Notes: generated from the letters alone by a model not told the origin. Positions 4,369 through 39,991 are shown, counted from the first letter of the stretch. The stretch is 40,310 bases of DNA from Deinococcales bacterium (GCA_031414595.1 JANNVX010000007.1:1-40310), one strand, 5' to 3'. Made by a program: numbers and translations.

Positions 4369-7158
4369 ATGAATTGGCTCGAGTTACTGTACACAATCAG
4401 CGCATTGTTTATTTTACTTTGGTTGCATAGTCGGCGGGTTTCTTGGGGACGGATTCCCTTTTTATTTGGCTTGGGTTTTATGGTCACGGCTGTTTGGTTA
4501 CTCGAGCAGTTGTATACCGAGATGTGGCTGACTGATGGTTTGTATTTTGTACTGCAAGCGGCTTTAATCATTGATTATCTGCTGGAAAAAACCACCACTT
4601 GGCGAATGACGGTACTGATGACCGCTTTGGTTGGTTCAATACTGGCACTTTTTGATAACTCTGGGACTTTACTCAGTTTAGGTATCACCATGCCGCAACA
4701 AAGTTTGGTTGGTTGGCATAGTGTGTTTTTGCTGGGTGTGGCTGCCACTGTTACTCTATTTGATGTCTTACTGAAACCCCTTGGTTTAACTCGGATTGTC
4801 AGTTTAATGGCAATTTTACCTCTAGGCACATGGTTTTGGTGGAACGCCTGGGCGCGTCCATATACTTTAGAAGCCCAAATTTTGCTGTTGTTGGTGACTT
4901 TTGTGGCACTGGCGATGTATTTAGAACGCAGCAACCCAAGACAGACGATGCCAGAATCTCAGGTTGTGGCGTATCAAAATTTACTTGGTACACTCGAACA
5001 ACTGGCAAACCCGAGTAAAAGTCGGCAAAGTGCCGAAAGTGATTTGGTCACGACCCTTTTTGGCACGGCTCGAGTCATGGCAAGTGGCAGCAGCGATAAT
5101 GAACTTTGGGAAAAACTTTTGAGTACCGCCGTACTGCTTGTACCGGGGGCGGAGGGTGGCAGTTTGCGTTTACGAAGTAGTGTTGGTTTTCGGTTTGTCG
5201 CCCAACAAGGCTATAACCAAAATCTAATGGAATTAGAATTAAGCGAAAAAAATGCTCGAGAGTGGCATGGCGATGCTTTGGCATGGCATCGGGGCGAACC
5301 ACGAATTGCCCGTCAGCCCGAAGTGCTGCTGGGTTTAAGCAGCCAAGAGCAACAACAAATTCTACAAAACAAACGGATTCGTGCCAATTTATATTTGCCC
5401 GTGTTGGTCGGCAATGAAGTCGTGGCGGACTTAAATTTGGATAGTTTTAGCAATGAAATGGCTTTTAATGATGATTCGATTCGGGCAGCACGGCAATTTG
5501 CGGTTCAAATGGGAGCGCTGATGTCTGCCCAACGCGAACGCAAAGAACTCGAGGCTCGACTTCGTGAATTTGCCTCCTTAGAAGCAGTTGCCGAAGCGCT
5601 GCATGATGCCAGAACCCCAAGCCGAATTGCCGAAAGTGTTCTCGAGCAGGCAACTATTTTACTGAATGTGCCGCACAGTGCTTTTTTACTGGTTTCCAGC
5701 GATGGTCAGCTTTTAAGGGTTTTATCGGTTCGTGGTTTATTTGAAAATATGATTAGTCATGGTGTTCCTCGAGGACAGGGTTTATCTTGGGCGGCGCTTG
5801 AAGCCAGAGGCACAATTTACTCGGCGGATGTACAGCGTGACCCCCGTTCTTTTGACCCAACGCCCCATATTCGGGTACCAGCCCATTGTCAATTGACTGT
5901 TCCAATTTTAGATTCAAGTGGCGCACCACTTGGCGCATTGTTGGTGGCAAGAAATTTACCTGAGCAATTCACCAACCTCGACCAACGCCTGACCGAAGTG
6001 ATTGCCAAAGTCTCTGGCAGTGCCTTAGAGCGTATCCGTGCCACCGAGAACTTAGAACGCCAAGTCTTTGAAAGTCGCAATTTGCTCAATTTAGCCCGTT
6101 TACTCGAGGGCAACGACAGCCAAGCCTTGGAGAACGCCCTTGAACGGGTACGGCAATTGGCAATAGCAGATGCTGCCGTGTTACTACGCAACGAAAATGA
6201 TGCTTTAAGCCTGCAAATTCTGGTCGGTAAAACCCCGACTGAAGATACGATTGCTAAAAGCCTAAAACTCGAGCCGTTAATGGTTTGGGCAAGACAACCG
6301 GTGCAACGCAGTCTCGAGTTGAGTGCCGAAGTGATTGGCTTAACGATGCGTCAAATTGGGGTGCGCTCGATGTTGGCTTCGATGCTTGACAGTGGCGGGA
6401 CGCTGCTCGGCACGCTGGTGGTCTACCGCTTTGACCAAACAGGTTGGAATGCCAGTGAAAAAGCCTTGATTGCGGCGGCTGGCGGGATGATTGGGGCGCT
6501 GTTATCGCGCTTAGAACGCTTAGAAACCTTGGAGGCAGCCTATGAGGGTTCGCTCGCCATGATTGGTAAATCCTTAGAAATGCGTGATCTCGAGACTGGC
6601 AACCACACCGAACGGGTCACACAAATGGCAGTACAAATGGCACGGGCATTAAATTTAAGCGAAGCAGAAGTTCGGGCGATTCGTTGGGGGGCGTACTTAC
6701 ACGATGTTGGTAAATTTGCAATTTCTGATTCGGTGCTGCGTAAACCCGGTAAACTCGATGGTGCAGAACGCTTACTGATTCAAGAACACCCACAAAATGG
6801 CTATGACTTGATTAAAGACATTCCTTTTTTACCCTTAATCACCAAACATGTGGTTTTGTACCACCATGAACGCTGGGATGGGACTGGCTACCCAACCCGA
6901 TTAGCCAATGAAGATATTCCCTTGGCAGCCCGTATTTTTGCGGTTTGCGATGTTTTTGATGCGCTGCAAAGTAAACGCACCTATAAGGAAGCCTTTACCT
7001 TAGAGCGCACCTTAGCCGAATTGTACTCGAGCGCCCATAACGGACATTTAGAATTGCGTTTGGTGCGTTTACTTGAACGAATCCTCAAGGAAAACAGTGC
7101 TGTCCTGAGCAGCAGTTCAGCCAGTCTCGTCAGACCCACGGGTATACTCGAGCCGTGA
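4369..7158 (+). CDS. Membrane-bound multi-GAF HD-GYP phosphodiesterase (cyclic dinucleotide signalling)
   Basis: N-terminal TM helices, GAF-like repeats, LHDVGK and HHERWDGTGYP motifs. Confidence 0.92.
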   Translation: MNWLELLYTISALFILLWLHSRRVSWGRIPFLFGLGFMVTAVWLLEQLYTEMWLTDGLYFVLQAALIIDYLLEKTTTWRMTVLMTALVGSILALFDNSGTLLSLGITMPQQSLVGWHSVFLLGVAATVTLFDVLLKPLGLTRIVSLMAILPLGTWFWWNAWARPYTLEAQILLLLVTFVALAMYLERSNPRQTMPESQVVAYQNLLGTLEQLANPSKSRQSAESDLVTTLFGTARVMASGSSDNELWEKLLSTAVLLVPGAEGGSLRLRSSVGFRFVAQQGYNQNLMELELSEKNAREWHGDALAWHRGEPRIARQPEVLLGLSSQEQQQILQNKRIRANLYLPVLVGNEVVADLNLDSFSNEMAFNDDSIRAARQFAVQMGALMSAQRERKELEARLREFASLEAVAEALHDARTPSRIAESVLEQATILLNVPHSAFLLVSSDGQLLRVLSVRGLFENMISHGVPRGQGLSWAALEARGTIYSADVQRDPRSFDPTPHIRVPAHCQLTVPILDSSGAPLGALLVARNLPEQFTNLDQRLTEVIAKVSGSALERIRATENLERQVFESRNLLNLARLLEGNDSQALENALERVRQLAIADAAVLLRNENDALSLQILVGKTPTEDTIAKSLKLEPLMVWARQPVQRSLELSAEVIGLTMRQIGVRSMLASMLDSGGTLLGTLVVYRFDQTGWNASEKALIAAAGGMIGALLSRLERLETLEAAYEGSLAMIGKSLEMRDLETGNHTERVTQMAVQMARALNLSEAEVRAIRWGAYLHDVGKFAISDSVLRKPGKLDGAERLLIQEHPQNGYDLIKDIPFLPLITKHVVLYHHERWDGTGYPTRLANEDIPLAARIFAVCDVFDALQSKRTYKEAFTLERTLAELYSSAHNGHLELRLVRLLERILKENSAVLSSSSASLVRPTGILEP

Positions 7159-21035: not shown

Positions 21036-21500
21036 ATGATTCCACCCTTCGAGAATAACCAATGGCAAACCCTTCCATCAGGAATCCATTGGGCAACATG
21101 GCAAGACATCAATGACCAGCTTGGATTCAACGAACACCGCCAAAACCAATTATCAGGACTTCACCTTGGTTTACCGGCTTTGAAAAATGCAGGGTGTCAA
21201 ACCGCTTTTATAGATGGCAGTTTTGCCACAGGCAAACCCAACCCAAACGATTTTGATGTTTGCTACGACTTAACAGGAATGCAACGCCATTTACTAGACG
21301 ATATATTCTTTGATTTTACCCAACAACGAAAACGCCAAAAAGACAGGTACAACGGCGAGTTCTTCCCAGCTAATCTACCAGCCACACCAAGTGGAATTCG
21401 TTACCTCGAGTTTTTTCAAATTAACAAGCACACCCAAACACCCAAAGGCATCATTGGCATTCACTTAGACACAGACCTACCCAACTTGGAGGAATTATGA
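21036..21500 (+). CDS. Nucleotidyltransferase-like protein (DUF6932-like), putative toxin-antitoxin component
   Basis: LPSGIH, IDGSF...PNDFD (GS-x-DxD polymerase-beta-like signature), PKGII. Confidence 0.75.
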   Translation: MIPPFENNQWQTLPSGIHWATWQDINDQLGFNEHRQNQLSGLHLGLPALKNAGCQTAFIDGSFATGKPNPNDFDVCYDLTGMQRHLLDDIFFDFTQQRKRQKDRYNGEFFPANLPATPSGIRYLEFFQINKHTQTPKGIIGIHLDTDLPNLEEL

Positions 21501-22057
21501 TTCAGAACGAACGAGAATACAAAATCAGTAAAGCCGAAGCCCAAAAGTTCAGGCAAGCCATTGTGCAACTCGAGCAGCAAAGCACCGAGGACTGGAAAAT
21601 CGAACTACAAAAAAACGCCATGCAAAGCAGCCTAGAAGAACTCGAGCAAGAAATTCTCGAGTACAATCAATTAAAAAATAGTCCCACACCAATTGCCCTG
21701 ACCCTTTCTAGTTTTGAACAAATTCCAGATGCGCTGATTCAAGCCCGAATTGCCAAAGGTTGGACGCAAGCCGAATTAGCCAGTCGGATGGGGGTTAAAC
21801 CACAACAAGTACAAAACGATGAAATTACGCATTATCAAAGTGCCAATTTTGCCAGACTAACTCGAGTTGCCAAGGTGCTAGGTATGGAATTTGAAAATGC
21901 AAGAATTATGGTTGGGTGGATTGGAAACCCAAGCAAACCCCCACCACAAAATGGCAGGGGTTGTGTTGGCTTGAGCCAAAGCGGGAATACTCGAGTACAA
22001 AAAAGCTGTAGTGAAGGGCTTAAAATGAGGGTGGACACACTCACCCCTAGATGGTAA
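21497..22057 (+). CDS. XRE/HigA-like HTH protein, putative antitoxin
   Basis: MIQNEREY start, coiled coil, LIQARIAKGWTQAELASRMGV HTH; ATGA overlap with the upstream gene. Confidence 0.85.
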   Translation: MIQNEREYKISKAEAQKFRQAIVQLEQQSTEDWKIELQKNAMQSSLEELEQEILEYNQLKNSPTPIALTLSSFEQIPDALIQARIAKGWTQAELASRMGVKPQQVQNDEITHYQSANFARLTRVAKVLGMEFENARIMVGWIGNPSKPPPQNGRGCVGLSQSGNTRVQKSCSEGLKMRVDTLTPRW

Positions 22058-28330: not shown

Positions 28331-29623
28331 CTATTCGTACCGTAAGGCATCCACGGGTTGAAGTTTGGCGGCTCTCGAGGCGGGGTAGTATCCGAAGAAA
28401 ATGCCGACGAAGGCACTAAAACCAAAGGCAAGCAGGACGCTCGAGAGTCCAATCACAGGGGTGATGTTCAGGGCGCTGCCAGCCAGCAACGCCAGCCCAA
28501 TACCAATGGCTGCGCCTAGTAAGCCTCCACCGACACTCAGGGCAATGCTTTCGACCAAAAACTGGGTCAGGATGTCTCGAGGGCGTGCGCCTAGGGCTTT
28601 TCGGATGCCGATTTCCCTTGTGCGTTCGGTCACACTCACCAACATGATGTTCATGATGCCGATTCCGCCGACCAGCAAACTAATTCCAGCCACTCCGCCT
28701 AAAAAAAGGGTCAGGATGGTGGTGACTTGGTTGAGGCTGGATAAGGCATCGGCTTGGTTTTGGACATTAAAATCGTAATCATCGGGGACTTCTTTTTTGT
28801 GCAGTTTTGCCATCGCATCTATTAAATCGGTTTGCAGTTGTTTTAAGTCGTTTTTGTCTTTTCCTTGAATATAGGCACTGGATACCGTATCGGCGGTGCT
28901 GCTTTGTCTGCCTAGGCGCTGCGAATAAGTCGAGAGCGGCACAATAATCTGGGTGTTCGGACTGGCAAACCCCGCGTCGCCTTTATCGGGCAGAATACCG
29001 ACGACATTAAAAGTAATCCCACTGAGCTTAAATTTACCGCCGACACTGAGCAGTAAATCGGTGGCAACTTGGTAGCCAATTACGGCAACACGTTTGCGTC
29101 CGTTATTGTCGGTTTCGCTAAAAAAAGCGCCTTTTTCTGGGATGGTATTGCGTACAAGCGCATAGTCTGACCATGAACCAATCACCGTGGCTTGGATATT
29201 ATTTGTACCCGCTTTGGCTTGAATGTTGCGTTGCACCGTCGGGGCAATACCACTGATTCGGCTCGAGAATTGTTCACGCAGGGCTTTGACATCATCTAAG
29301 GTAATGGTTTGTTGTCCGCCGCCACGCACCAGACCAAAGCCGCCACCTCGAGCGCCCGACCCACTGCTCACGGTTAGTAAATTTGTGCCAAGTCCCTCGA
29401 GTTGTTTTTGAATCCCACTGGTTGCCCCACTGCCAAGGCTGGTCAGGGCAATCACGGCTGCCACACCAATAATTACGCCCAAGGTGGTCAGGATGCTGCG
29501 AAGCGGATTCCCGATAATCGCTCGAGCCGCAATTTGTACGGTTTGCGATAATGGCATCCCACCGCCGCCACTCGAGACCAATTCGGTAATTCGGGGTGTT
29601 TCTTGCTCGAGAACCAGACTCAT
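28331..29623 (-). CDS. MacB/FtsX-family ABC permease
   Basis: RSILTTLGVIIGV, GGIGIMNIMLVSVTERTREIGIRKALGA, PVDALRYE. Confidence 0.95.
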   Translation of the reverse strand: MSLVLEQETPRITELVSSGGGGMPLSQTVQIAARAIIGNPLRSILTTLGVIIGVAAVIALTSLGSGATSGIQKQLEGLGTNLLTVSSGSGARGGGFGLVRGGGQQTITLDDVKALREQFSSRISGIAPTVQRNIQAKAGTNNIQATVIGSWSDYALVRNTIPEKGAFFSETDNNGRKRVAVIGYQVATDLLLSVGGKFKLSGITFNVVGILPDKGDAGFASPNTQIIVPLSTYSQRLGRQSSTADTVSSAYIQGKDKNDLKQLQTDLIDAMAKLHKKEVPDDYDFNVQNQADALSSLNQVTTILTLFLGGVAGISLLVGGIGIMNIMLVSVTERTREIGIRKALGARPRDILTQFLVESIALSVGGGLLGAAIGIGLALLAGSALNITPVIGLSSVLLAFGFSAFVGIFFGYYPASRAAKLQPVDALRYE

Positions 29624-30324
29624 GCTGCCTTCCTGATTTGCCGGTTAGGGCTGTCTGACTCGAGTAAGCCATCACGCAGACGCACAATACGCTGGCAGTG
29701 TTCGCCAATCTCGGGTTCGTGGGTCACAATAATCACGGTGCTGCCTTCATTGTGCAGGGCTTGGAATAGACTCATGATTTCGATGCTGGTTTTACTGTCC
29801 AAGTTACCTGTTGGTTCATCGGCTAATAAAATGGCTGGCTCGAGGGTCAGGGCGCGTGCCACGGCGACCCGTTGTTTTTGACCGCCAGAAATTTGACTGG
29901 GTAAGTTGCGCCATTTGTCGGCAATGCCAACCCGTTCAAGCGCCCACATTGCCCGTTCACGGCGTTCTTTGGCAGGGATTCCAGCGTAAATCATTGGGGT
30001 TTCGACATTCTCGAGGACATTTTGGCGGGTTAATAAGTAAAAGGCTTGGAAAACAAAACCAATATCTAGATTTCTCGCCCTCGAGCGTTCATTTTCGTTG
30101 AGGGTCGTGACATCACGTCCGCGCAATTGGTACGCGCCTTCGGACGGTGCATCGAGCAGTCCAATAATTTGCATGAGCGTGGTTTTGCCACTGCCCGAAG
30201 GTCCCATCAAAGCCACCATTTCGCCGCGCTGAACGGTCAAACTCACGCCTTTAAGGGCTTGGAATTCTTCATCGGCTAAGTAATAACTTTTGATAACGTT
30301 TTGTAACTCAAGGATGTTGTTCAT
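29620..30324 (-). CDS. ABC ATP-binding protein (MacB/LolD type)
   Basis: GPSGSGKTT, ISGGQKQRVAVARAL, LADEPTGNLD. Confidence 0.96.
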   Translation of the reverse strand: MNNILELQNVIKSYYLADEEFQALKGVSLTVQRGEMVALMGPSGSGKTTLMQIIGLLDAPSEGAYQLRGRDVTTLNENERSRARNLDIGFVFQAFYLLTRQNVLENVETPMIYAGIPAKERRERAMWALERVGIADKWRNLPSQISGGQKQRVAVARALTLEPAILLADEPTGNLDSKTSIEIMSLFQALHNEGSTVIIVTHEPEIGEHCQRIVRLRDGLLESDSPNRQIRKAA

Positions 30325-31625
30325 GGTCTTCCGCTCGGAGTTGTAGTTGTGCTTGTGGTGCGTTCTTTGGTGGTCAGAATCACACGGTCTCGAGCCGCAA
30401 GCCCAGAATCAATCACCACATTTGTGCCGTCTTCGGCGGCTATTGTCACTCGAGTCAGTTCTTCTGTGCCGTCGCGTTTTTGAATGTTCACATAAGTACG
30501 GTTTCGCACGGTCTGCACGGCGCGTTTTGGAATCACCACCACATTCTGGAATTCTTGGGCAATAATTTCGACTTCCGAAGTCATGCCGGGGCGCAGTTTT
30601 AATTCGGGGTTTTCTATTGTTACAGTCGCATAAAACACGGCTATGTTTTGCTGCACCACTGCTTTTGGGCTTACAGCAGTGACTTTGCCCGTAAAAGTTT
30701 CGTCAGGTAGCGCATCTAAGGTTACTTCGGCAGTTTGACCGACTTTAACCTTGGCAATTTCGGTTTCATCTACCTGCACAGGGATTTTGACCCTCGAATC
30801 CTCAATGAGCGTTAAAATACTCGAGCCGCCAACACTGCCCCCAATCTGCCCCGTGACACTCGAGACAATCCCATTAAAAGGCGCATAGATTTTGCTGTTG
30901 GCAAGGTCGGTTTGGCTTGTCTGTACACTGATTTCGGCTTGGCGAATGGCAAGTTCTTGGTTGCGTAAGTCTTGGGTGTCGGTTGAAGATTTGATGTTTT
31001 GGGTGCTTTGGGTGGTCTGAAGACTTAAGCGGGTAGTGGACAGGCTGTTTTGGGCTTTTTCTAGGTTGCGTCTGGTTTCATCAAGTTGGTTTTGGCTTGC
31101 TCCACCCGCCTTATACAAACGCTGCATATTGTTGTAATTGCTTTGCGCCGTGGATAAATCAAGTTTGGCATTGCTCATTTGACTCTGGGCATTTTGCAGA
31201 CTTTGGGTTTGGCTGCTGCGGTTACTCGCTTGGTTTAACTTGGTGCTTTCCAAAGAAATTCTGGCTTTTTCGAGTTGCAGCTTGGCATTCTCGAGGTTGC
31301 GGTTAAAGGTCGTTGTGTCAAGCCGAGCAATTAACTCTCCTTTATTCACTCGAGCGCCTTCTTTGACAATCATGGCGAGTGTTCCACTGACACTGGGTTT
31401 GATGTCCATGCTGCTGACTGCCTCGAGCGAACCTGGTCCTGTCACCGAAACCCGAAAAGTGGTTAAGTCGGCTGTAGCTGTCTCGACTTTAACCAAAGTG
31501 GTCGGGTCAGCCCCAGCGCCGGGCGGTTTAACAATTCCTGTGGCAAGTAATCCGCCGCCAATTGCGGGCAGTAGCAGTAATGCCCACCACCATCTCGAGG
31601 TTTTGCGTTTCTTGGCTTTGTTCAT
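30321..31625 (-). CDS. Periplasmic adaptor (membrane fusion protein, MacA-like)
   Basis: N-terminal TM, VKEG..V.KG, long coiled coil, IYAPFNG, LRPGMT. Confidence 0.93.
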   Translation of the reverse strand: MNKAKKRKTSRWWWALLLLPAIGGGLLATGIVKPPGAGADPTTLVKVETATADLTTFRVSVTGPGSLEAVSSMDIKPSVSGTLAMIVKEGARVNKGELIARLDTTTFNRNLENAKLQLEKARISLESTKLNQASNRSSQTQSLQNAQSQMSNAKLDLSTAQSNYNNMQRLYKAGGASQNQLDETRRNLEKAQNSLSTTRLSLQTTQSTQNIKSSTDTQDLRNQELAIRQAEISVQTSQTDLANSKIYAPFNGIVSSVTGQIGGSVGGSSILTLIEDSRVKIPVQVDETEIAKVKVGQTAEVTLDALPDETFTGKVTAVSPKAVVQQNIAVFYATVTIENPELKLRPGMTSEVEIIAQEFQNVVVIPKRAVQTVRNRTYVNIQKRDGTEELTRVTIAAEDGTNVVIDSGLAARDRVILTTKERTTSTTTTPSGRP

Positions 31626-32671
31626 TTGTCACCTCCTCCGAGTTTTACCACCAAGCCAATCACGTCCACACCACTGGCAGTCGAAACAGTTGCCAAATTA
31701 CGCCAGTACGCATCCACAGCTTGGGTTTGGCTGTACGCGGCTCTGGTGTATGCCAATTCGGTTTGTTGCAAAGTAATTCTCGAGATACTGCCGCCCTTAA
31801 ACCGCGCTTGGTCTTGGTCTAAATTCGATTTGGCATTGTCTAAATCTTTGGCACTGATTCCCACACGTTCACGGGCATTGCTGGCATTGCGAATCGCATC
31901 ACGCAGGGTATTGACCGCATTGGCTTTACTGGTTTCTAAGCTGCGCTTGCTGTTCTCGAGCGTGGCTTGGTTGTCTCGTAGGGTATTTAGGGGTGTGAAA
32001 TCATTATCGGAAAGTTTGACATTTAACTCTGCCAAACTGACATTCTGTGCGGCTTGTAAGACACTCCCAATGCGACTCTCTAAACCCGCCTCAAGGGCTG
32101 CTGCATCGAGTTTGACATCCAGTTTTGCTAAATTATCCGAAGCCGCTAAATCGCCTTTAGCCCCAGTCACCAACTCGAGACGGTTACTTAACACCGGAAT
32201 CTGTGCTTTGGCATCGGCAAGGCTTTGTTTACTCGAGGAGACAGTGCTTTCGGCTTTAGAAACATCAAGCGCCGTACCATTGCGAGCCGCTAGTTTTGCT
32301 TTGGCAATTTCTAAATTCCGAAGGTCTAAACTGGTCTGTGCCTCGAGAACCGCTAGATTTTCCTGTGCCTCAAACAAATTGATATAGGCAGTTAGCACAC
32401 TCGAGAACACCGAAAGTTTTTGCGCTTCAAGCTGCACTGCGTTTAACGCCACGGTATTTTTAGCCTGACTGAGCGGCACAATTAAAGTGGTTGGGTCGGC
32501 TTCCTTGACTGCTAAATCGGCTCGAGCATTGGCTAAGGTTGCACGGCTGGTCACAAGGTCAGTGTTTCGCTCGAGGGCTAATTTTGTTGCTCCCTCGAGA
32601 TTGAGGGCAGTGGCGGCGGCAAGGGCGATTGAGATAAACGCAAAACCAATAAAAATCATTTTTTTCATCAT
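31622..32671 (-). CDS. TolC-family outer-membrane efflux protein
   Basis: Signal peptide, two helical OEP-like repeats, position in the efflux operon. Confidence 0.85.
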   Translation of the reverse strand: MMKKMIFIGFAFISIALAAATALNLEGATKLALERNTDLVTSRATLANARADLAVKEADPTTLIVPLSQAKNTVALNAVQLEAQKLSVFSSVLTAYINLFEAQENLAVLEAQTSLDLRNLEIAKAKLAARNGTALDVSKAESTVSSSKQSLADAKAQIPVLSNRLELVTGAKGDLAASDNLAKLDVKLDAAALEAGLESRIGSVLQAAQNVSLAELNVKLSDNDFTPLNTLRDNQATLENSKRSLETSKANAVNTLRDAIRNASNARERVGISAKDLDNAKSNLDQDQARFKGGSISRITLQQTELAYTRAAYSQTQAVDAYWRNLATVSTASGVDVIGLVVKLGGGDK

Positions 32672-32720
32672 GAACTCCTAAGTAGGCAAAAGTGAAAGTG
32701 GGGAAGTGCGTAAGACTTGA

Positions 32721-34025
32721 TTATTTGGTCAACCCCTTACCAAGCGAATTCTCGAGCCTAAGCCATGCCACGTAAGCGGTTACAATCGTATTTTCTAGGT
32801 CGCGTTCGGCTTGCTGCATGGCTAAACGGCTGGTCTCGAGGTCGTTTTTGGTTTGGCTACCTGCGTTGACTCTGGTTTGGGTTGTGCTAAAAGCATTCTT
32901 GGCGTTCTCGAGGGCTTTTTTACTTAATTCAATGCGTCGTATGGCATTTTGGGTTTCAGAGTATTTTTGGCGTACATCCAACTCAGCACTTTTCTTGCTG
33001 CGTTCAAGGTTTTGTTTGGCACTGTTGAGGGCGGTTTGGGCGCTGGTGATTCGTGCATCGCCCGTTGGGGCGATAACGGGTAAGCTGATGCTGGCGCTGA
33101 TGCTGATGGTTGTGCCTGTGCTTGGTGTGGTTGGCGGTTGGTATGAACCACCGATACTTAAACTGCCTGTTTGTAAATTAAGCGAGGTGTTCAGGTTTGC
33201 ACCACTGTCAGACACCCCAAGGTTAATACTGCTGGCGGGTAGCCATCGGTCACGCTGGGCGATGGTTAAATTATCTTCGGCATCTCGTAGGGCATAAATG
33301 GCTTTTTGGGTGTCAGTGCGGTCGATTAAGGCGGTTTTTAAGAGGTTCTCGAGCGGTAAAAGTGCGGCGGGGGTGGGTGGGCTACTTATGGCAAGGCTTA
33401 GTTCGATTTGGTCAAGGGTATTGGCGAGGGTTTGTTGGTTTAACTCGAGGGTATTTTCGGCTTGGTTGGCACTTATTTTGGCGCTTTCTAAGTTTTGTTG
33501 GCTGGTGGCGAATTGCTCGAGCGTGATTTGATTATTGCTGCGCTGGGTCAAAGCGGTTTTTAATTGGTTTTCACGCAAAATAAGGGTGTTACTGGCAAGT
33601 TCTAAATCCAATGCGGCAACCCGAAGATTAAAGTATTGGGTGTTGACACCAATAAAAAGTGTGTTTCTTGAGTCGCGTACATCGAGTTTAGCCCGTGCAA
33701 AAGTGCGTTCGGCTTTGCGAATATCATCAAATTGACTCGCCCACGGCAGAAGCGGCAAACTGGCAGTGGCATTGACTTTGTAGGTTGCATTGTTGACCCC
33801 TGTACCCGTATTGGTGTTGTTGCTGACATCTGCGCCAACTACTAAACGCAAACCAGCCGCCGCTAAACTACTCTCAAAATTATGTTGTGCAACCAAAAAG
33901 GTTTGGTCTATGACTTGCCATTCAAGACTCTGCGGTAAGCGTTTAAGCACCTGCTCGAGGGTTTGGTTTGTAGCTGCCAATGCCACACCAAAAAATAGGA
34001 TAAGAATGAATAGGGTTTTTTGCAT
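32721..34025 (-). CDS. TolC-family outer-membrane efflux protein
   Basis: AGGAG RBS, signal peptide, OEP repeats with beta-strand segments. Confidence 0.87.
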   Translation of the reverse strand: MQKTLFILILFFGVALAATNQTLEQVLKRLPQSLEWQVIDQTFLVAQHNFESSLAAAGLRLVVGADVSNNTNTGTGVNNATYKVNATASLPLLPWASQFDDIRKAERTFARAKLDVRDSRNTLFIGVNTQYFNLRVAALDLELASNTLILRENQLKTALTQRSNNQITLEQFATSQQNLESAKISANQAENTLELNQQTLANTLDQIELSLAISSPPTPAALLPLENLLKTALIDRTDTQKAIYALRDAEDNLTIAQRDRWLPASSINLGVSDSGANLNTSLNLQTGSLSIGGSYQPPTTPSTGTTISISASISLPVIAPTGDARITSAQTALNSAKQNLERSKKSAELDVRQKYSETQNAIRRIELSKKALENAKNAFSTTQTRVNAGSQTKNDLETSRLAMQQAERDLENTIVTAYVAWLRLENSLGKGLTK

Positions 34026-34058
34026 GGGTTCTCCTAACGAACAGTTTTTTATCTCGAG

Positions 34059-34096
34059 CCGAAGGTTCTAAGAACTCAGCGTGAAGGTATTGTGAA
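34059..34096 (-). promoter_or_regulatory. Phased TTCAC repeats (11-bp period), candidate OmpR-family binding site for the efflux operon
   Basis: Minus-strand TTCAC starting at 34096 and 34085, then TTCTT and TTCGG at the same period. Confidence 0.5.
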
Positions 34097-34133
34097 TGTT
34101 GTTTTTATGATGGTTTTCATCTATGCTTTTTAG

Positions 34134-34358
34134 ATGAATGCTGTCCTTGAACAAACTGTACGGGATTTGCCACTCGAGGAACAATTTGAGTTACTTGACG
34201 TGCTTCATGACCAAGTTGCCCAAGCCCTGAATTTACGCCTGCCCCTGCCAGAAGATGTTGAACTCGAGTTAGACCAACGAATTGCACGAATGCGCTCTGA
34301 GCCTCATGTTGGAATTCCTTGGCGAGAAGTTCCGAATTTGCAAAACCGCCTCTCATAA
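34134..34358 (+). CDS. Putative addiction-module antitoxin component, orphan
   Basis: LPLEEQFELLD.L...ELDQRIA...GIPWREV pattern; TATGCT-N6-ATG. Confidence 0.75.
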   Translation: MNAVLEQTVRDLPLEEQFELLDVLHDQVAQALNLRLPLPEDVELELDQRIARMRSEPHVGIPWREVPNLQNRLS

Positions 34359-34359
34359 C

Positions 34360-34394
34360 AAAAACCGCAACTTGAGAGACTTTCCCAAGTTGCG
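34360..34394 (-). terminator. Rho-independent terminator closing the peptide/ABC operon
   Basis: Minus strand CGCAACTTGGGA-AAGTC-TCTCAAGTTGCG followed by GTTTTT. Confidence 0.75.
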
Positions 34395-34414
34395 AATGAT
34401 TTTTCACCATGAAT

Positions 34415-35173
34415 CTATTCGTGACCAAGAATACCTTTCTGCTTTGCGATTTGCAAAGATTTTTGTAGCAAAAAAGTACCAGAGATAAAATAACCCAAAG
34501 CACTCATCAAAGCGGGGAGTAAATACTCGAAGTCTGGTTTACCACCAAAAGCAGCCCAATTAACTAAACTTGTAGCTGAAGCAATTGGAATTAAGTAGAA
34601 CCAAAGGTCTTTGATCAAGGGTAATGCAACCAACCCGAATAAAAATAGTTGGGAAAGAACTAAGACTCCACTATTATCTTTAATAAGCATTGCAACACTA
34701 CCAAACCAGAACCCAAATCCAAGCGCACTTATCATAGCGATTAACATTGGAATAACCATATACCAAGACCATTCCAATGTTGTTCCTGTCAACAAGAGCA
34801 AACCCCCAAGTAAAACGCCCATCTGTAGAATGTTGAGGAATAAACCTCCAAGCGCACGGGCTGTAAATATAGTAGCTAAGCTATGACCACTTAAAAACAG
34901 ATGTTCCAGCATACCGTTCTTTGATTCAGTACGAATTAAGCTACTGGGAAGAGAAACCTGAGAAAAGACAATCATGCCAAGCGTATAATTAAGGATTAGA
35001 CTTGCAGTGCTTGCCGTTGTAGGAGCATTACTCGATAATAAACGACCAGCACCTAAAATTAAATAAAAAATGACACCCAAAACAATTAAACCTGTAACTG
35101 TTTGGAATGGATTTCGTTTTAATTCCCAAATACTACGAATAAATTCTATCCTGAACAGCAGTAATGTATTCAT
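34415..35173 (-). CDS. ABC-2-type exporter permease
   Basis: About 6 TM segments, E..NGMLEHL motif, ATGA overlap with the ATPase gene. Confidence 0.87.
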   Translation of the reverse strand: MNTLLLFRIEFIRSIWELKRNPFQTVTGLIVLGVIFYLILGAGRLLSSNAPTTASTASLILNYTLGMIVFSQVSLPSSLIRTESKNGMLEHLFLSGHSLATIFTARALGGLFLNILQMGVLLGGLLLLTGTTLEWSWYMVIPMLIAMISALGFGFWFGSVAMLIKDNSGVLVLSQLFLFGLVALPLIKDLWFYLIPIASATSLVNWAAFGGKPDFEYLLPALMSALGYFISGTFLLQKSLQIAKQKGILGHE

Positions 35174-36078
35174 GCTTTAACCTCTGCATCTTTGATGGCT
35201 TTACGAAAAATTGTACCCAAATCAACCTCAAGTTTCTCTATATTTATGATAGCTCGTGGATGAAGTGCATCTAATATCGTATACAGTCCATGAGGGTCTG
35301 GAAGTGTAATAGTCATTTGATTGCCAGTTATTGTACTTGGAAAATGAGTTGAAAAATTTTCAAGGGAGTTTTCAAAAGTTAAACGATATGTTTGAACTCC
35401 GAATTGCGAAATCAATTCAGCCCGTGGCTTATCCAAAAGTACCTGACCACCAACTAAAATGACTACACGGTCAGCTAAGCGGTCAGCTACTTCCATTTGG
35501 TGGGTTGTCAATAGAACTGCGACCCCAGAAAGTGCCATCTCTTTTATGCGTTCTTCGAGTGCGTCACCTGCTTCTAAATCAAGCCCAAGTGTTGGTTCGT
35601 CAAGCAACATACAACGTGGTTGGTGTATCAAAGCATTTGCCAGAGCTAGTTTTGAAAGCATACCCTTAGAAAGTGTTTGTGTTGGCGCATCCCGTTTATC
35701 TACCAGTCCAAGTTCATCTGTTAACCGCAATGCTCTAATTTTTGCTTCTTTTGGGCTAAGCCCTCGCAGTGCGGCTGTGTACTCAAGATTTTCCATAACG
35801 CCAAGCCGAGCGCTACTTGAACGTGCAGTATCAAGTAATACGCCTAGACGAGCATTATATCCTTTTGTGTCAGGTGCATACCCCTCGAGCCTAACAGTTC
35901 CACTATCAGGAACTATTAAACCCGCAATCATTCTCATGGTTGTGGTTTTGCCAGCGCCGTTTGCTCCCAATAAAGCAACTACCTCGCCAGACTTAACAAC
36001 AAAGCTAACACCATCTAATGCACTAACTTTGCGTTTGTGTGCGCGAAATGTTTTCCGTAAATCAGCAACTTCTAGCAT
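35170..36078 (-). CDS. ABC-2-type exporter ATP-binding protein
   Basis: GANGAGKTT, LSKGM, LLDEPTLGLD, TTH. Confidence 0.95.
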   Translation of the reverse strand: MLEVADLRKTFRAHKRKVSALDGVSFVVKSGEVVALLGANGAGKTTTMRMIAGLIVPDSGTVRLEGYAPDTKGYNARLGVLLDTARSSSARLGVMENLEYTAALRGLSPKEAKIRALRLTDELGLVDKRDAPTQTLSKGMLSKLALANALIHQPRCMLLDEPTLGLDLEAGDALEERIKEMALSGVAVLLTTHQMEVADRLADRVVILVGGQVLLDKPRAELISQFGVQTYRLTFENSLENFSTHFPSTITGNQMTITLPDPHGLYTILDALHPRAIINIEKLEVDLGTIFRKAIKDAEVKA

Positions 36079-36162
36079 CTTTTACCTCATAGTTTTCAAT
36101 CTAAACGAGAATACGCTTACATTTTTAGTCTTTATTTTATCTCCATACTTTCGTATTTTTTA

Positions 36163-36194
36163 CTCACTGGTCTTAGCTTATTAAGACCAGTGAG
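36163..36194. promoter_or_regulatory. 13-bp-stem hairpin between the peptide genes and the exporter (mRNA stabiliser or partial attenuator)
   Basis: CTCACTGGTCTTA-N6-TAAGACCAGTGAG; no U-tract on the minus strand. Confidence 0.7.
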
Positions 36195-36262
36195 CTATTG
36201 ATTGAGCTTGAATGAGAAGGAAGTGAAGACTTTTTATTCCCAATAACTACTAGGGTAAGAGT

Positions 36263-36316
36263 CTAACACATTCCAAAAACGTGGCATAAAATTGCCCCAA
36301 TAAAATTCGCATACAT
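36263..36316 (-). CDS. Small peptide 4, MYANFIGAILCHVFGMC (17 aa, C-x5-C)
   Basis: AAGGTGG RBS before ATG; TAG stop; motif shared with three neighbours. Confidence 0.75.
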   Translation of the reverse strand: MYANFIGAILCHVFGMC

Positions 36317-36375
36317 AATTGCCACCTTGAATCCTTAAATTTATAAAACAAACCCAGAGATATGCGAACATACAT

Positions 36376-36438
36376 TTAGCAATAAATTCCTGACCAACAT
36401 AGTGCGTACATAATAGCGTTTACAATAGCTTGTCCCAT
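36376..36438 (-). CDS. Small peptide 3, MGQAIVNAIMYALCWSGIYC (20 aa, C-x5-C)
   Basis: AGGAAGGTGA RBS before ATG; TAA stop; shares AIV with peptide 2 and YALC with peptide 1. Confidence 0.8.
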   Translation of the reverse strand: MGQAIVNAIMYALCWSGIYC

Positions 36439-36499
36439 ATAATCACCTTCCTTTTGCATTGAGAAAACCAAAACTAATTCTCATCCTCACATATCATAT

Positions 36500-36565
36500 T
36501 TAGCTGTCACAGCCGCCAAATACGATACAGATAATTTGTACAATAGCAGATATAAATCGTTGCAT
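36500..36565 (-). CDS. Small peptide 2, MQRFISAIVQIICIVFGGCDS (21 aa, C-x5-C)
   Basis: AAGGAGGTGA RBS before ATG; TAA stop; shares VFG with peptide 4. Confidence 0.82.
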   Translation of the reverse strand: MQRFISAIVQIICIVFGGCDS

Positions 36566-36599
36566 AAGATTTCACCTCCTTCTAAATCTTTTGAAACCG

Positions 36600-36653
36600 T
36601 TAAAAGCAATATCCCAAGTAGTTACACAAAGCGTAATAAAACCAACCAGTCAT
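36600..36653 (-). CDS. Small peptide 1, MTGWFYYALCNYLGYCF (17 aa, C-x5-C)
   Basis: GGGGAGG RBS before ATG; TAA stop. Confidence 0.8.
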   Translation of the reverse strand: MTGWFYYALCNYLGYCF

Positions 36654-36767
36654 ATTTTTCCTCCCCTCAAAGTCCGCGTGTCAATTTTTCTTCGTTGTGG
36701 GTTATCAGTTTATACAAATGAAGTGCTTAGCCAATTAGTCATAAAGCTCAACCAAGAAAAACTCAAT

Positions 36768-36805
36768 TTCACTTAATCTTCACAGTTTCCTCGAGCCACC
36801 TTCAT
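36768..36805 (+). promoter_or_regulatory. Phased TTCAC-like repeats (11-bp period) upstream of the response regulator
   Basis: TTCAC 36768, TTCAC 36779, CTCGA 36790, TTCAT 36801, then CATAAT-N6-ATG. Confidence 0.5.
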
Positions 36806-36828
36806 TTGTTGGCTGTCATAATGGTCTT

Positions 36829-37521
36829 ATGAGTACACTACACACCATGCCAATCGTTCTGGTTGTCGAAGATGAAACTGAAATTGCCGATGTTTTAGAA
36901 GCCTATTTGCGTAAAGAAGGTTTTCGCACTGAACGGGCTGCCGATGGTGACAGGGCGCTCGAGTTGCATCGTTTGGTTAAACCCGATTTGATTCTGCTCG
37001 ATGTGATGCTGCCCAAAAAAGATGGTCTCGAGGTGCTGCGAAAAGTGCGGGCAGATGGCAACACCCCTGTTATTTTACTGACCGCTCGAGCCGAGGACAT
37101 TGATAAACTGATTGGTTTGGAACTCGGCGCAGATGATTATGTGATTAAGCCGTTCAGTCCGCGTGAAGTGGTGGCGCGGGTCAAAGCGGTCTTGCGTCGG
37201 GCGCGTCCAGAAGAAAAATTAGATGTGCTGCGGGTGGGCTACTTGGAACTCGATGTGCGGGCAGTGGCGGTCAAAGCCAGTGGCTCAAGGTTGGATTTAA
37301 CCCTGACCGAATTTAGGTTGCTCGAGGCGTTAATGCGGGCAGTGGGTCGGGCGTTTACCCGTGCAGAATTACTCGAGGTCGCACTGCCAGATTCAGATGC
37401 CTTAGAGCGAGTGGTGGATGCACACCTAAAAAATTTACGCCATAAATTAGCCGACGCGGGTGTGGGCGATATGCTCGAGACGGTGCGTGGGATTGGTTAT
37501 CGCTTGCGGTTTGAGACGTGA
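36829..37521 (+). CDS. OmpR/BaeR-family response regulator
   Basis: VVEDE, LLDVMLP, GADDYVIKPFSPREV, wHTH ending TVRGIGYRL. Confidence 0.96.
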   Translation: MSTLHTMPIVLVVEDETEIADVLEAYLRKEGFRTERAADGDRALELHRLVKPDLILLDVMLPKKDGLEVLRKVRADGNTPVILLTARAEDIDKLIGLELGADDYVIKPFSPREVVARVKAVLRRARPEEKLDVLRVGYLELDVRAVAVKASGSRLDLTLTEFRLLEALMRAVGRAFTRAELLEVALPDSDALERVVDAHLKNLRHKLADAGVGDMLETVRGIGYRLRFET

Positions 37522-37522
37522 A

Positions 37523-38800
37523 ATGCCTGTTGCGGTGGACAGTATGAACAGCATCACAGCGCGGATTATTGGGGCGATGCTATTGGTCGCCCTTGCCACG
37601 ATAGGTATTCCGGCTGCTTTTACGCTTTTTAGTGCCGAGAATCAGTTCAAGCAACCCAATGAACGCAAACGTGAATTTTCTGATGTCTTTCGCAGTGTCG
37701 AAATTCTGTGTCGGGATAAACCACCAATCGGTTTGGTTTGTCCTGCACCCCGAGATGATTCACCAATAACAGCCAAAAATCCAAGTGGTGCTGAACCATT
37801 AAGTGCGATTCTTGCCCCACCCTTAAAACCCAGTGGTGGGCGTTCTCGAGAACAGAACCGCAATCCAATTTTTGCTTTTGTTGACCCGCGTCCGTGGGTG
37901 CAGCAAACCGTGCTTTTTGGGGTTGGGATTTCCTTGGTCATGGCGGTTGGTTTGGCATTGCTGTTATCTCGGCGAATCAGTCATCCGATTCAATTGGTCT
38001 CTTTAGCCGCCGCCAAAGTTGCCCAAGGCGATTTATCGGCTCGAGCCAAAGTGAGTGGGCAGGATGAACTGGGGCGCTTAGCCCAGAATTTTAATCAAAT
38101 GGCACTGGGTTTAGAACAACAAGCCGTAACCAGACAGAACCTATTTGCCGATATTGCCCATGAACTCCGCACCCCTTTAACTGCCATTAAAGCCCGTCTT
38201 GAAGCCCTTGAAGATGGGGTTATGCCGCTCGAGATGGAAGCCATTTTGCGACTTTCAAACCAAACCAAATTACTCGAGCGTCTGGTTGAAGACCTGCGCC
38301 TACTGTCTTTAGCCGATGCCAATGCCTTAACGTTAGAACGTCATCCAAGCGATTTAACCAACCTTGCCAAAGACACCTTAGAGCATTTTCAAGCCAAAGC
38401 CGAAACCAAGAATATCCGCCTTGAATTTCATGCCGCTTCACAACTGATTTTGCCGCTCGATGCCAGCCGAATCCAACAAGCCATTGGCAATCTGCTCGAG
38501 AATGCCTTAACCTATACCCCAAGCGGCGGCACAGTCAGTCTAACGGTGCAAAAACACCAAAACCTAGCCGAAATTTGTGTTGCCGATACTGGCACAGGAA
38601 TCCCGCCCGATGCCTTACCACGGATTTTTGAACGCTTGTACCGCGCCGATGCCTCGAGAAACCGAAGCACTGGCGGCAGTGGACTTGGTTTAGCCATCGT
38701 CAAAACAATTGTTGAATTACACCACGGAACGGTAGAAGCCTCTAATTCCCCCGAAACAGGAGCAGTCTTCACCCTCACTTTACCCCTCGAGTCAAAATGA
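37523..38800 (+). CDS. BaeS-like sensor histidine kinase (TM-HAMP-HisKA-HATPase)
   Basis: DELGRLA..FN.MA HAMP, IAHELRTPL H-box, NLLENA, DTGTGI, GSGLGL; start taken at ATG 37523 (37544 also possible). Confidence 0.94.
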   Translation: MPVAVDSMNSITARIIGAMLLVALATIGIPAAFTLFSAENQFKQPNERKREFSDVFRSVEILCRDKPPIGLVCPAPRDDSPITAKNPSGAEPLSAILAPPLKPSGGRSREQNRNPIFAFVDPRPWVQQTVLFGVGISLVMAVGLALLLSRRISHPIQLVSLAAAKVAQGDLSARAKVSGQDELGRLAQNFNQMALGLEQQAVTRQNLFADIAHELRTPLTAIKARLEALEDGVMPLEMEAILRLSNQTKLLERLVEDLRLLSLADANALTLERHPSDLTNLAKDTLEHFQAKAETKNIRLEFHAASQLILPLDASRIQQAIGNLLENALTYTPSGGTVSLTVQKHQNLAEICVADTGTGIPPDALPRIFERLYRADASRNRSTGGSGLGLAIVKTIVELHHGTVEASNSPETGAVFTLTLPLESK

Positions 38801-38881: not shown

Positions 38882-39991
38882 GTGACCTTTTGTTCTAGCC
38901 AACTTTTTTCTTTGCCAGTTGCCCCGAATCTCGAGTTGCGACATTTTGAATTGCATCACACAGAAATGCTGTTTGACCTGATTGATAAAAGCCGAACCCA
39001 TTTGCGGCGCTACCTTGGCTTTGTGGACTTAAGCACCTCAATAACCGCCGAAGATTTTATCCGTCGGTCTCGAGCCAAATTTGTTAAGGATGGCGCTGGC
39101 GATTTTGGTGTCTGGCAAGGAGAAAAACTGATTGGCGTGGTCAGTTTATTTGACTTTTCTTTGATTCATCGTAAAGCAGAAATTGGATACTGGATTGGGC
39201 AAGCCTTTGCTGGGCAGGGCATTATCACCAAAGCAGTCTCGAGTTTAGTGGATTACGCTTTTTCCGAACTGGGTTTGAACCGCATTCAACTCTGTTGTGC
39301 GACCGATAATCTTGCCAGCCGGCGGATAGCCGAAAAACTTGGTTTTCAGAAAGAAGGTTTGGCTCGAGAAGATAGGTTTTTACGAAGCACTAGGGTCACG
39401 CATGAGGTTTGGTCGTTACTGGCAGCCGATTGGAACACCAAAGCTGTACGTTTTTCAAAGTCACTTGGGAACGGTGCAGAACTGCGCTTGCTCGAGGCTA
39501 AACACGCCAAGGATGTTTTTGCAGTGGTGGACAGCAGCCGCGCTCATTTACGGCAGTTTTTACCGTGGGTGGATGGCAATACAACCCAGACCCATTCCGA
39601 AGAATTTATTCAAAGTACCTTAGCGCAATTTAAGGACTTTGACGGTTTAGTGGCTGGTATTTGGCAAGACAATCAATTGGCGGGTTTAATCGGGATGCAC
39701 TTTATCGATTGGGAACACAAAGACACCGAATTTGGCTACTGGCTTTCTAAAAGTCACACGGGGCAGGGTTTAGTGACCAAAGCCGCCAGTGCTTTACTGG
39801 ATTACATCTTTTTTGAACTTAATCTGCACCGTGTTTCTATAGCTCACGCACTCGAGAATACCGCTTCGCAAAAAGTAATCCAGCGCTTAGGATTTAAGCC
39901 CGAATCCACGGCTCGAGATGCCGAGTGGTTGTATACCCGCTTTCATGATTGGCAGAAATACGGTTTGCTAAAACGCGAATGGCAAGGCTAA
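38882..39991 (+). CDS. Tandem double RimJ/RimL-type GNAT acetyltransferase
   Basis: Two homologous halves, each with EIGYW/EFGYW...GQG and N.AS...LGF. Confidence 0.9.
   Translation: MTFCSSQLFSLPVAPNLELRHFELHHTEMLFDLIDKSRTHLRRYLGFVDLSTSITAEDFIRRSRAKFVKDGAGDFGVWQGEKLIGVVSLFDFSLIHRKAEIGYWIGQAFAGQGIITKAVSSLVDYAFSELGLNRIQLCCATDNLASRRIAEKLGFQKEGLAREDRFLRSTRVTHEVWSLLAADWNTKAVRFSKSLGNGAELRLLEAKHAKDVFAVVDSSRAHLRQFLPWVDGNTTQTHSEEFIQSTLAQFKDFDGLVAGIWQDNQLAGLIGMHFIDWEHKDTEFGYWLSKSHTGQGLVTKAASALLDYIFFELNLHRVSIAHALENTASQKVIQRLGFKPESTARDAEWLYTRFHDWQKYGLLKREWQG

Follow-up and report, generated by a model that had tools for sequence, protein, structure and literature searches.

A cassette of small two-cysteine peptide genes and a predicted ABC exporter forms an apparently exchanged island in Deinococcales genomes

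Organization of the cassette

We analyzed a 40,310-nucleotide stretch of DNA from a Deinococcales bacterium (GCA_031414595.1 JANNVX010000007.1:1-40310), which in its full length is called the window here. A self-contained cassette occupies positions 34332..36741 on the minus strand and consists of four small peptide open reading frames (ORFs), named pep1 to pep4, a hairpin, the genes for an ATP-binding cassette (ABC) ATPase and an ABC-2 permease, and a terminator. An original prediction for this DNA had described four co-oriented tiny ORFs, each with its own Shine-Dalgarno (SD) sequence and exactly two cysteines spaced as C-x5-C, followed by a 13-bp hairpin, an ABC ATPase, an ABC-2 permease and a terminator. 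The ORFs were confirmed as written, on the minus strand, and all of the downstream elements were found where they had been placed. The elements are as follows, with the stop codon counted into the coordinates of the peptide ORFs.

36654..36741, minus strand: 5' end of the cassette and presumed promoter region upstream of pep1; identity to the related locus L002 stops at 36742
36653..36600, minus strand: pep1, 17 aa, MTGWFYYALCNYLGYCF; C-x5-C; net charge 0; SD GGAGG
36565..36500, minus strand: pep2, 21 aa, MQRFISAIVQIICIVFGGCDS; C-x5-C; net charge 0; SD AAGGAGGT
36438..36376, minus strand: pep3, 20 aa, MGQAIVNAIMYALCWSGIYC; C-x5-C; SD AGGTGA
36316..36263, minus strand: pep4, 17 aa, MYANFIGAILCHVFGMC; C-x5-C; net charge 0; SD AGGTG
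36163-36194, minus strand: hairpin separating peptide genes from transporter genes, 14 bp, -23.3 kcal/mol, z = -8.1
35170-36078, minus strand: ABC ATPase, 302 aa; Pfam ABC_tran 7e-27
34415-35173, minus strand: ABC-2 permease, 252 aa; start overlaps the ATPase stop by 4 nt
34365..34395, minus strand: intrinsic-terminator-like hairpin, 13 pairs followed by a TTTTTGTTAT T-run, closing the cassette

All four peptide ORFs start with ATG and are preceded, 4-8 nt upstream, by a match of 5-8 nt to the anti-SD complement. SD-led ATG ORFs of 14-25 aa were counted on both strands of the window, giving 12 in total. Five of these encoded at least two Cys and four contained C-x5-C, and these four were exactly pep1 to pep4. 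In 5000 first-order Markov simulations of positions 36200-36700 none produced at least four SD-led ORFs and three produced at least two two-Cys ORFs. As the pattern was not reproduced in any simulation, a chance origin of the four ORFs is implausible.

The region upstream of pep1 (36654..36741) was scanned on the minus strand for promoters and no canonical sigma-70 match was found. TTGACA was read 24 nt ahead of the pep1 ATG with no -10 element behind it. The hairpin at 36163-36194 formed 13 perfect pairs in one search and 14 pairs in other folds, had no U-tract on the coding strand and lay 68 nt from the pep4 stop codon. This hairpin probably acts in processing, stabilization or partial termination of the transcript and would set how much peptide is expressed relative to transporter. 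No Rfam family was matched over positions 34000-37000 at E<=1. A Pfam scan of the 35 larger ORFs of the window detected no modifying enzyme, dedicated peptidase or Dsb gene, and the sole peptidase in that scan was an M20 enzyme located 25 kb away. The scan thus agreed with the expectation that the cassette holds no leader, modifying enzyme or peptidase.

Conservation of the peptide genes in related loci

Two related loci, L001 and L002, both from Deinococcales metagenome-assembled genomes, were compared with the window. Both (2/2) carried three two-Cys small ORFs directly upstream of the ATPase gene.

L002, 3800-3862, 3938-4000 and 4106-4159: two-Cys peptide ORFs upstream of the ATPase gene
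L001, one ORF 5'-truncated at the contig edge, then 129-191 and 292-345: two-Cys peptide ORFs

The peptide ORFs of L001 and L002 differed by 31 substitutions, distributed over codon positions 1, 2 and 3 as 9, 3 and 19, while only 42 of 75 positions agreed in one spacer between peptide genes and 49 of 105 in the other. This combination of biased substitutions and poorly matched spacers points to selection on the peptides. The third spacer, which holds a conserved hairpin, matched at 64 of 86 positions. The small ORFs had been proposed as genuine and linked to the transporter. That they are so, and are conserved, was borne out by homologous two-Cys ORFs upstream of the ATPase in both close relatives and by the third-position bias of their substitutions. 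The order of structural genes, hairpin and transporter was kept in all three loci. L001 and L002 carried another hairpin at the equivalent place followed by a U-rich tract, and in L002 the last peptide stop codon lay 19 nt from the hairpin.

In L002 the promoter-like sequence TTTACC-16-TATAAT was present just ahead of the first peptide gene. Overlapping this sequence, and immediately ahead of TATAAT and the first peptide gene, is a 17-bp inverted repeat (L002 3742-3780) that pairs perfectly around a 5-nt loop; it may serve as an operator or as an insulating terminator. Nothing equivalent to this repeat exists in the window.

Features of the peptide family

The four peptides of the window and the three each from L001 and L002 made up a set of ten, which aligned as one family. 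The Gly and the last Cys were invariant in the alignment, the first Cys aligned in 9/10, and the conserved residues besides Cys were Gly, Ile and Ala-Ile. Every peptide had two Cys, with the last Cys 0-2 residues from the C-terminus (at the very C-terminus in six of the ten) and the Gly 2-3 residues ahead of it. All ten also had a net charge of 0 and a grand average of hydropathy (GRAVY) of 0.64-1.55. Pep3 was the only window peptide with a clear counterpart, being identical at 10-11 of 20 residues to the middle peptides of L001 and L002; the remaining peptides were 25-50% alike, and one-to-one orthology could not be established beyond pep3.

The spacing of the two Cys was variable. C-x5-C was found in 4/10 peptides, all from the window, C-x6-C in 2/10 and C-x9-C in 4/10, and the difference between short and long loops corresponded to an indel of 3-4 residues in the alignment. 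C-x5-C is therefore a property of the window allele and not of the family, as the relatives have C-x6-C and C-x9-C. The original prediction had taken C-x5-C as the defining feature and had named variable Cys spacing in advance as a finding that would count against it, and variable spacing is what we found.

The five peptides long enough for these searches (20-21 aa) were compared with Pfam and NCBIfam at E<=10 and no model was matched, in keeping with the suggestion that the family is unlike recognized ones. No description of such peptides, in Deinococcota or elsewhere, and no characterized bacteriocins from Deinococcota were found in the open-access text searched. The best reading is that the peptides and the pump belong to no described family.

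Predicted fold and distribution of the ABC pump

The ATPase matched the NCBIfam drrA subfamily at 5.9e-54, under that model's cutoff, and scored 114 bits against a cutoff of 310 for the NCBIfam lantibiotic protection ATPase family, which is far below. The best PDB sequence matches of its nucleotide-binding domain (NBD) were the NBDs of ABCA4, ABCA3, ABCA7 and ABCA1. The permease matched Pfam ABC2_membrane_3 at 2.7e-5, also under the cutoff, and its profile gave no match among PDB sequences at E<=1. An AlphaFold2 model of the permease built on a 58-sequence alignment had a predicted local distance difference test score of 92.4 and a predicted template modeling (TM) score of 0.88. The best Foldseek matches of this model were Wzm, TarG, KpsM, ABCG2/25, CcmB and NosY at TM scores of 0.5-0.64; with ABCG25 set aside, the scores were 0.55-0.64 at a probability of 1.00. 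Based on the model, the permease is predicted to have the six-helix fold of type V ABC transporters (exporters), with a separate NBD that is ABCA/DrrA-like. A dedicated ABC exporter had been postulated for the peptides, and the exporter fold seen in the model and its Foldseek matches supports the exporter part of this. Characterized members of the type V fold move hydrophobic or lipid-linked cargo outward.

The permease was rare. A word-indexed search of 5.8 billion clusters returned three relatives, and an exhaustive profile search of 1.84 billion representatives returned two clusters below 1e-30 and 419 at <=1e-3. The ATPase clade comprised 14 clusters in metagenomes that were mutually 56-89% identical, and the 13 other ATPase alleles had 60-71% identity to the window ATPase. 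The next relatives of the ATPase were from Meiothermus and Calidithermus (~50%) and from cyanobacteria (40-45%). For the ATPase, PADLOC similarities were confined to generic ABC ATPases, and neither the permease nor the antitoxin-like gene described below was matched. When plasmids were searched by tblastn the permease gave only five remote matches (26-29% identity) and the ATPase matched 16 records (31-46% identity). One remote relative, on an Aulosira plasmid, was located inside a non-ribosomal peptide synthetase cluster.

The cassette as a hypervariable island

The window and L002 share the genes around the cassette. Protein identity between the two was 99% for a response regulator, 95.5% for its kinase, 92% and 97% for two outer-membrane efflux proteins (OEPs) and 91% for an antitoxin-like protein. 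The flanking DNA was ~90% identical by blastn over 2.2, 0.24 and 2.4 kb. The cassette boundaries (34332-36741) were set from this blastn comparison, in which flank identity was ~91% up to 36742. Within the cassette the ATPase was 64% and the permease 67% identical in protein, the transporter DNA was 65.7% identical, and the peptide region was not aligned by blastn. The position of the cassette differed as well. In the window (36741-34332) it lies between the upstream region of the regulator and the 3' end of the antitoxin gene. In L002 (3690-5970) it is found on the other side of the antitoxin gene, between that gene's 5' side and the promoter region of the OEP.

Base composition set the cassette apart. 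GC content was 0.39-0.40 in all three cassettes as compared to 0.47-0.49 outside (0.39 vs 0.47 in the window). The palindrome CTCGAG occurred once in the 2.4 kb of the window cassette (0.4 per kb vs 5 per kb), seven times in the 2.3 kb of the L002 cassette (3.1 vs ~6 per kb outside) and three times in the 2.1 kb of the L001 cassette (1.4 vs ~5.5 per kb outside). A blastn search of plasmids and phages in distant mode gave no match to the cassette DNA. We also considered a transposon or integron origin, which was unsupported, as the cassette ends carry neither an integrase nor flanking repeats, direct or inverted.

From these sequence comparisons the cassette is best read as a hypervariable, compositionally foreign and probably horizontally exchanged island. 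The near-identical flanks, the diverged cassette and the 14 deep ATPase clusters indicate that the cassette alleles long predate the divergence of the host genomes and were exchanged or kept as polymorphism. Deep allelic divergence within near-identical flanks is typical of bacteriocin/immunity and pherotype loci.

Neighboring genes and genome background

The following features adjoin the cassette.

36829-37521, plus strand: response-regulator gene, adjoining the peptide side of the cassette
28331-34025, minus strand: tripartite efflux operon with two tandem TolC-like OEPs (434 and 349 aa), a membrane fusion protein (MFP) and MacB split into ATPase and permease
36768-36783, minus strand, and 34081-34096, plus strand: copies of a direct repeat; in L002 at ~3401-3416 and ~5965-5980

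The regulator and its kinase form a BaeSR/AdeRS-like two-component system that stands next to the cassette in both the window and L002. The direct repeat, GTGAAG-N5-GTGAA with an 11-bp period, occurred twice in the window as compared to 0.1 expected. Its copies lie upstream of the regulator gene and of the OEP-OEP-MFP-MacB operon in the same relative orientation, and likewise in L002. This repeat is likely to be bound by the BaeR/AdeR-like regulator, and its presence in the same orientation upstream of both suggests that the two-component system regulates itself and the efflux pump. The kinases of the window and L002 differed at 21 of 446 aligned positions, four of them in the predicted periplasmic sensor domain and five among residues 1-19 of the GTG-start frame. 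The GTG-start kinase ORF overlaps the regulator gene by ~60 nt (window 37460-37525; L002 ~2675-2724). The true kinase start is probably ~20 codons downstream because the L002 frame has a stop at codon 16. The two-component system was considered as a sensor of the peptides and rejected as the leading idea, as the kinase is near-constant while the peptides diverge and the repeat lies upstream of the regulator gene and the efflux operon.

Dependence on the adjoining MacAB-TolC-like operon for passage of the outer membrane was rejected as well, as the L001 cassette has fragments only and no such operon beside it. These fragments, 3' of the L001 cassette at 2100-2970, resemble the start of an OEP gene, a piece of the second OEP (69% over 35 aa) and part of an FAA-hydrolase, and beyond them lie unrelated housekeeping genes. 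The L001 locus resembles a decayed form of the arrangement in the window. The neighboring genes are probably not part of the cassette.

The antitoxin-like gene (window 34134-34358, plus strand; L002 3440-3649, minus strand) is an orphan 'addiction module component' gene (PF09720) with no adjoining toxin partner. It is 91% identical between the window and L002 with a differing C-terminal end, and the window cassette junction is at its 3' end. Synteny with L002 breaks again just after the kinase gene (window 38915 onward; L002 1-1264), where the window has a double-GNAT acetyltransferase gene (38882-39991) and L002 a BshC-like bacillithiol synthesis gene. Elsewhere in the window a DUF6932 protein and then an overlapping HTH_3 protein are encoded at 21036-22057 on the plus strand and may be a two-gene module.

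Across the 40.3-kb window CTCGAG was counted 201 times, or once every 200 bp or so, where shuffles predicted 3.8, and its overall density was 4.4 per kb in L001 and 6.3 per kb in L002. CTCGAG is a highly iterated palindrome of these genomes, at a density comparable to that of cyanobacterial HIP1. No description of it as such was found in the open-access literature searched, and the texts there that joined iterated palindromes with the term Deinococc- appeared to deal with cyanobacteria.

A model for the cassette and the alternatives

Our best explanation, to which we give about an even chance, is that the cassette produces leaderless hydrophobic peptides and that a type V ABC exporter would drive them out of the membrane and would also confer immunity, by analogy to phenol-soluble modulins (PSMs) and their Pmt exporter or to bacteriocins. 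Transcription of the peptide genes would start in the upstream region of the cassette itself, and each ORF would be translated from a strong ribosome-binding site of its own. The hairpin past the last peptide gene would cut or process the read-through, so that the peptides would be made in excess over the coupled ATPase and permease. Lacking charge and any signal or leader sequence, the peptides would partition into the cytoplasmic membrane, and the type V (ABC-2) exporter would pull them from the bilayer and expel them, providing secretion and protection of the producer as PmtCD does. Pumps of the McbEF or LanFEG type do likewise for bacteriocins. Outside the cytoplasm the two Cys, one of them at or beside the C-terminus, would probably form a disulfide and close a loop whose size varies, with the invariant Gly allowing the turn, and the peptides would act on the membranes of neighbors that lack the cognate pump. 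Such action on pump-less neighbors would explain the joint and fast divergence of peptides and pump as compared to the surrounding genome. The data themselves show the genes, their coding conservation, the linkage to the pump, its predicted exporter fold and the island; export by this pump, immunity, the disulfide and the target are the parts of the model that we infer.

Several points weigh against this explanation. Neither a separate immunity gene nor a step for export across the outer membrane is encoded in the cassette, and the MacAB-TolC-like operon is absent beside the L001 cassette. The peptides are uncharged and weakly amphipathic with a low hydrophobic moment (muH 0.09-0.44), and they are neutral and 17-21 aa long as compared to a charge of +4 to +7 and a length of 30-44 aa for the known leaderless bacteriocins (PMC6131525, Table 2). 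With a spacing of 5, 6 or 9 residues a defined disulfide ring is not conserved, and Cys pairs at i to i+6, i+7 or i+10 cannot bridge inside one continuous helix. The comparison covered only two related loci, and the third peptide of L001 (292-345) starts with GTG and has no SD. SD-led two-Cys ORFs were found upstream in neither of two cyanobacterial plasmid loci (0/2) with a related permease (27%) and ATPase (40-46%), which suggests that the link between peptides and pump is confined to one small clade. Finally, at 17-21 residues the peptides could equally be single-pass membrane micro-proteins.

Such micro-proteins would not be exported and would act as accessory subunits or regulators of a pump for another substrate such as a lipid, drug or metabolite. 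The length of 17-21 aa, the charge of 0 and a GRAVY of up to 1.55 suit a short transmembrane helix, the peptide genes share an operon with the pump in 3/3 loci, and relatives with the type V fold mostly move lipids or glycolipids. Against this, the copy number differs (four vs three), divergence is faster in the peptides than in the pump (identity of at best 10-11 of 20 residues vs 64-67%), the hairpin that splits peptide from pump genes suggests non-stoichiometric expression, and several paralogous subunits would be unusual for a 2+2 homodimeric pump. We consider this explanation unlikely. Secreted pheromones, exported by an ABC-2 transporter as the PptAB peptides of streptococci are and sensed by a receptor encoded elsewhere, appear quite unlikely to us. 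The peptides are small, hydrophobic and leaderless and stand beside an ABC-2 type exporter, PptAB is reported to export the SHP and sex-pheromone peptides (PMC5167397, PMC7564271, PMC4173765), a two-component system adjoins the cassette in the window and L002, and the allelic diversity is pherotype-like. However, in agr- or com-like pherotypes the receptor co-varies with the peptide alleles, and the adjacent kinase does not: it is 95.5% identical across very different peptides, with 4/21 differences in its predicted sensor domain. The likely regulator-binding repeat is oriented to the regulator and the OEP/MacAB operon and not to the peptide genes, no two-component system was present in the L001 sequence examined, the cassette itself encodes no receptor, and it would be unusual for one cassette to carry three or four different signals. 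The option of signaling that had been offered for these peptides is thus weakened by the constancy of the kinase and the lack of a receptor in the cassette.

The peptides may instead be precursors of peptides that are made on the ribosome and modified after translation (RiPPs), with Cys processed by enzymes encoded elsewhere (to thioether, aminovinyl-cysteine-like or metal-binding forms) and a pump that exports the mature product. This fits the two strictly kept Cys and the C-terminal Cys in 6/10, as C-terminal Cys are used for aminovinyl-cysteine rings in some lanthipeptides and linaridins. RiPP loci are recognized by a leader/follower precursor and a co-encoded modifying enzyme, but these peptides have no room for a leader and show no recognition sequence, no modifying enzyme was found in the cassette or among the 35 scanned window ORFs, and a cassette that moves as a unit would lose enzymes encoded elsewhere. 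We give this explanation a slim chance. A very improbable reading is that the ORFs are regulatory leader peptides, in which ribosomes stalled on Cys codons would determine whether the hairpin is read through, as a cysteine-sensing attenuation. Each ORF does have two Cys codons and a hairpin follows ahead of the pump genes, and a two-Cys leader peptide upstream of cysS was proposed in Deinococcus deserti (PMC4007540). Against it, there are three or four separate ORFs with a strong SD each, the Cys codons are never adjacent, conservation extends beyond Cys (to Gly, Ile and Ala-Ile), the hairpin lies 68 nt (window) or 19 nt (L002) from the last stop, and the fold shows no alternative antiterminator. 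Last, the ORFs may be chance frames in an AT-rich spacer that encode nothing. They are very short and two antisense ORFs of 61 aa lie on the plus strand, but the 0/5000 simulations and the homologs with coding-type substitutions in 2/2 loci stand against this, no antisense ORF of at least 50 aa was present over the L002 peptide region, and in practice this explanation is refuted.

Gene callers miss ORFs of 17-21 codons, and annotations for that reason pass over such systems. Should the peptides prove to be exported and active, leaderless multi-peptide toxins would reach a diderm, non-Firmicute phylum and would include a new chemical type that is uncharged, carries a Cys pair and has about half the usual length. 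The pump would give a very small two-protein model for type V ABC exporters that extract hydrophobic peptides from the bilayer, and the contrast between ~90% identical flanks and a 65% identical cassette is a natural experiment on the specificity between peptide and pump. A bolder proposal, which we regard as possible though doubtful, is that the cassette represents a new family of the shortest gene-encoded multi-peptide toxins known, in which neutral two-Cys peptides of 17-21 residues and one ABC-2 pump make a minimal 2.4-kb module that would be both a strain-level weapon and an addiction element and whose alleles would be swapped by recombination at a hot spot of the Deinococcota chromosome. 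It would be an addiction element because loss of the pump would kill a producer of the peptides.

Comparison with known systems

Aureocin A70, garvicin KS and the cereucins are described (PMC6131525) as three or four tandem leaderless paralogous peptides with no modification genes and an ABC transporter nearby. The cassette is like these bacteriocins in having four (window) or three (L001, L002) tandem leaderless ORFs. The same source gives the multi-peptide leaderless bacteriocins as 30-34 aa, +4 or +5, mutually homologous and without a disulfide, whereas the cassette peptides are 17-21 aa, have a charge of 0 in 10/10 and carry two Cys. The cassette differs from the group in peptide length and charge and by these features is not a member of it.

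The ABC-2 export and immunity pumps of bacteriocin loci include McbEF, LanFEG/NisFEG and SagGHI. The McbEF, LanFEG and SagGHI loci resemble the cassette in having an ATPase and a six-helix ABC-2 permease beside the structural genes and a layout of gene, hairpin and transporter. Unlike the cassette they also encode leader peptides and modifying enzymes. The Rana-box peptides of frogs, to which the cassette peptides had been likened, have a hydrophobic or helical N-terminal part and a C-terminal Cys-to-Cys loop that is a fixed heptapeptide ring, C-x5-C. The cassette peptides share the hydrophobic N-terminal part followed by a C-terminal Cys pair and differ in a loop of 5, 6 or 9, the absence of cationic residues and an unrelated origin. 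A fixed 7-residue ring was not conserved, as C-x5-C is present in only 4/10 family members.

In the psm-alpha genes with PmtCD, as in the cassette, several leaderless peptides of ~20 residues are encoded in tandem, each behind a ribosome-binding site of its own. PSMs of the alpha type are amphipathic alpha-helical peptides of 20-26 aa. The cassette peptides are close to this in length, at 17-21 aa, but have two conserved Cys and no net charge, and are of low amphipathicity (muH 0.09-0.44). The psm-alpha and pmt genes are unlinked, and the cassette differs in that its pump is encoded beside the peptides and in that its host phylum is not that of the staphylococci. PmtD was not among the Foldseek matches listed for the cassette permease. 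PmtCD is reported to export the hydrophobic PSMs, more hydrophobic peptides favor PmtCD, and only PmtCD protects the producer (PMC9974410). By analogy, the PSM/PmtCD system would be the best-studied functional analog of the cassette.

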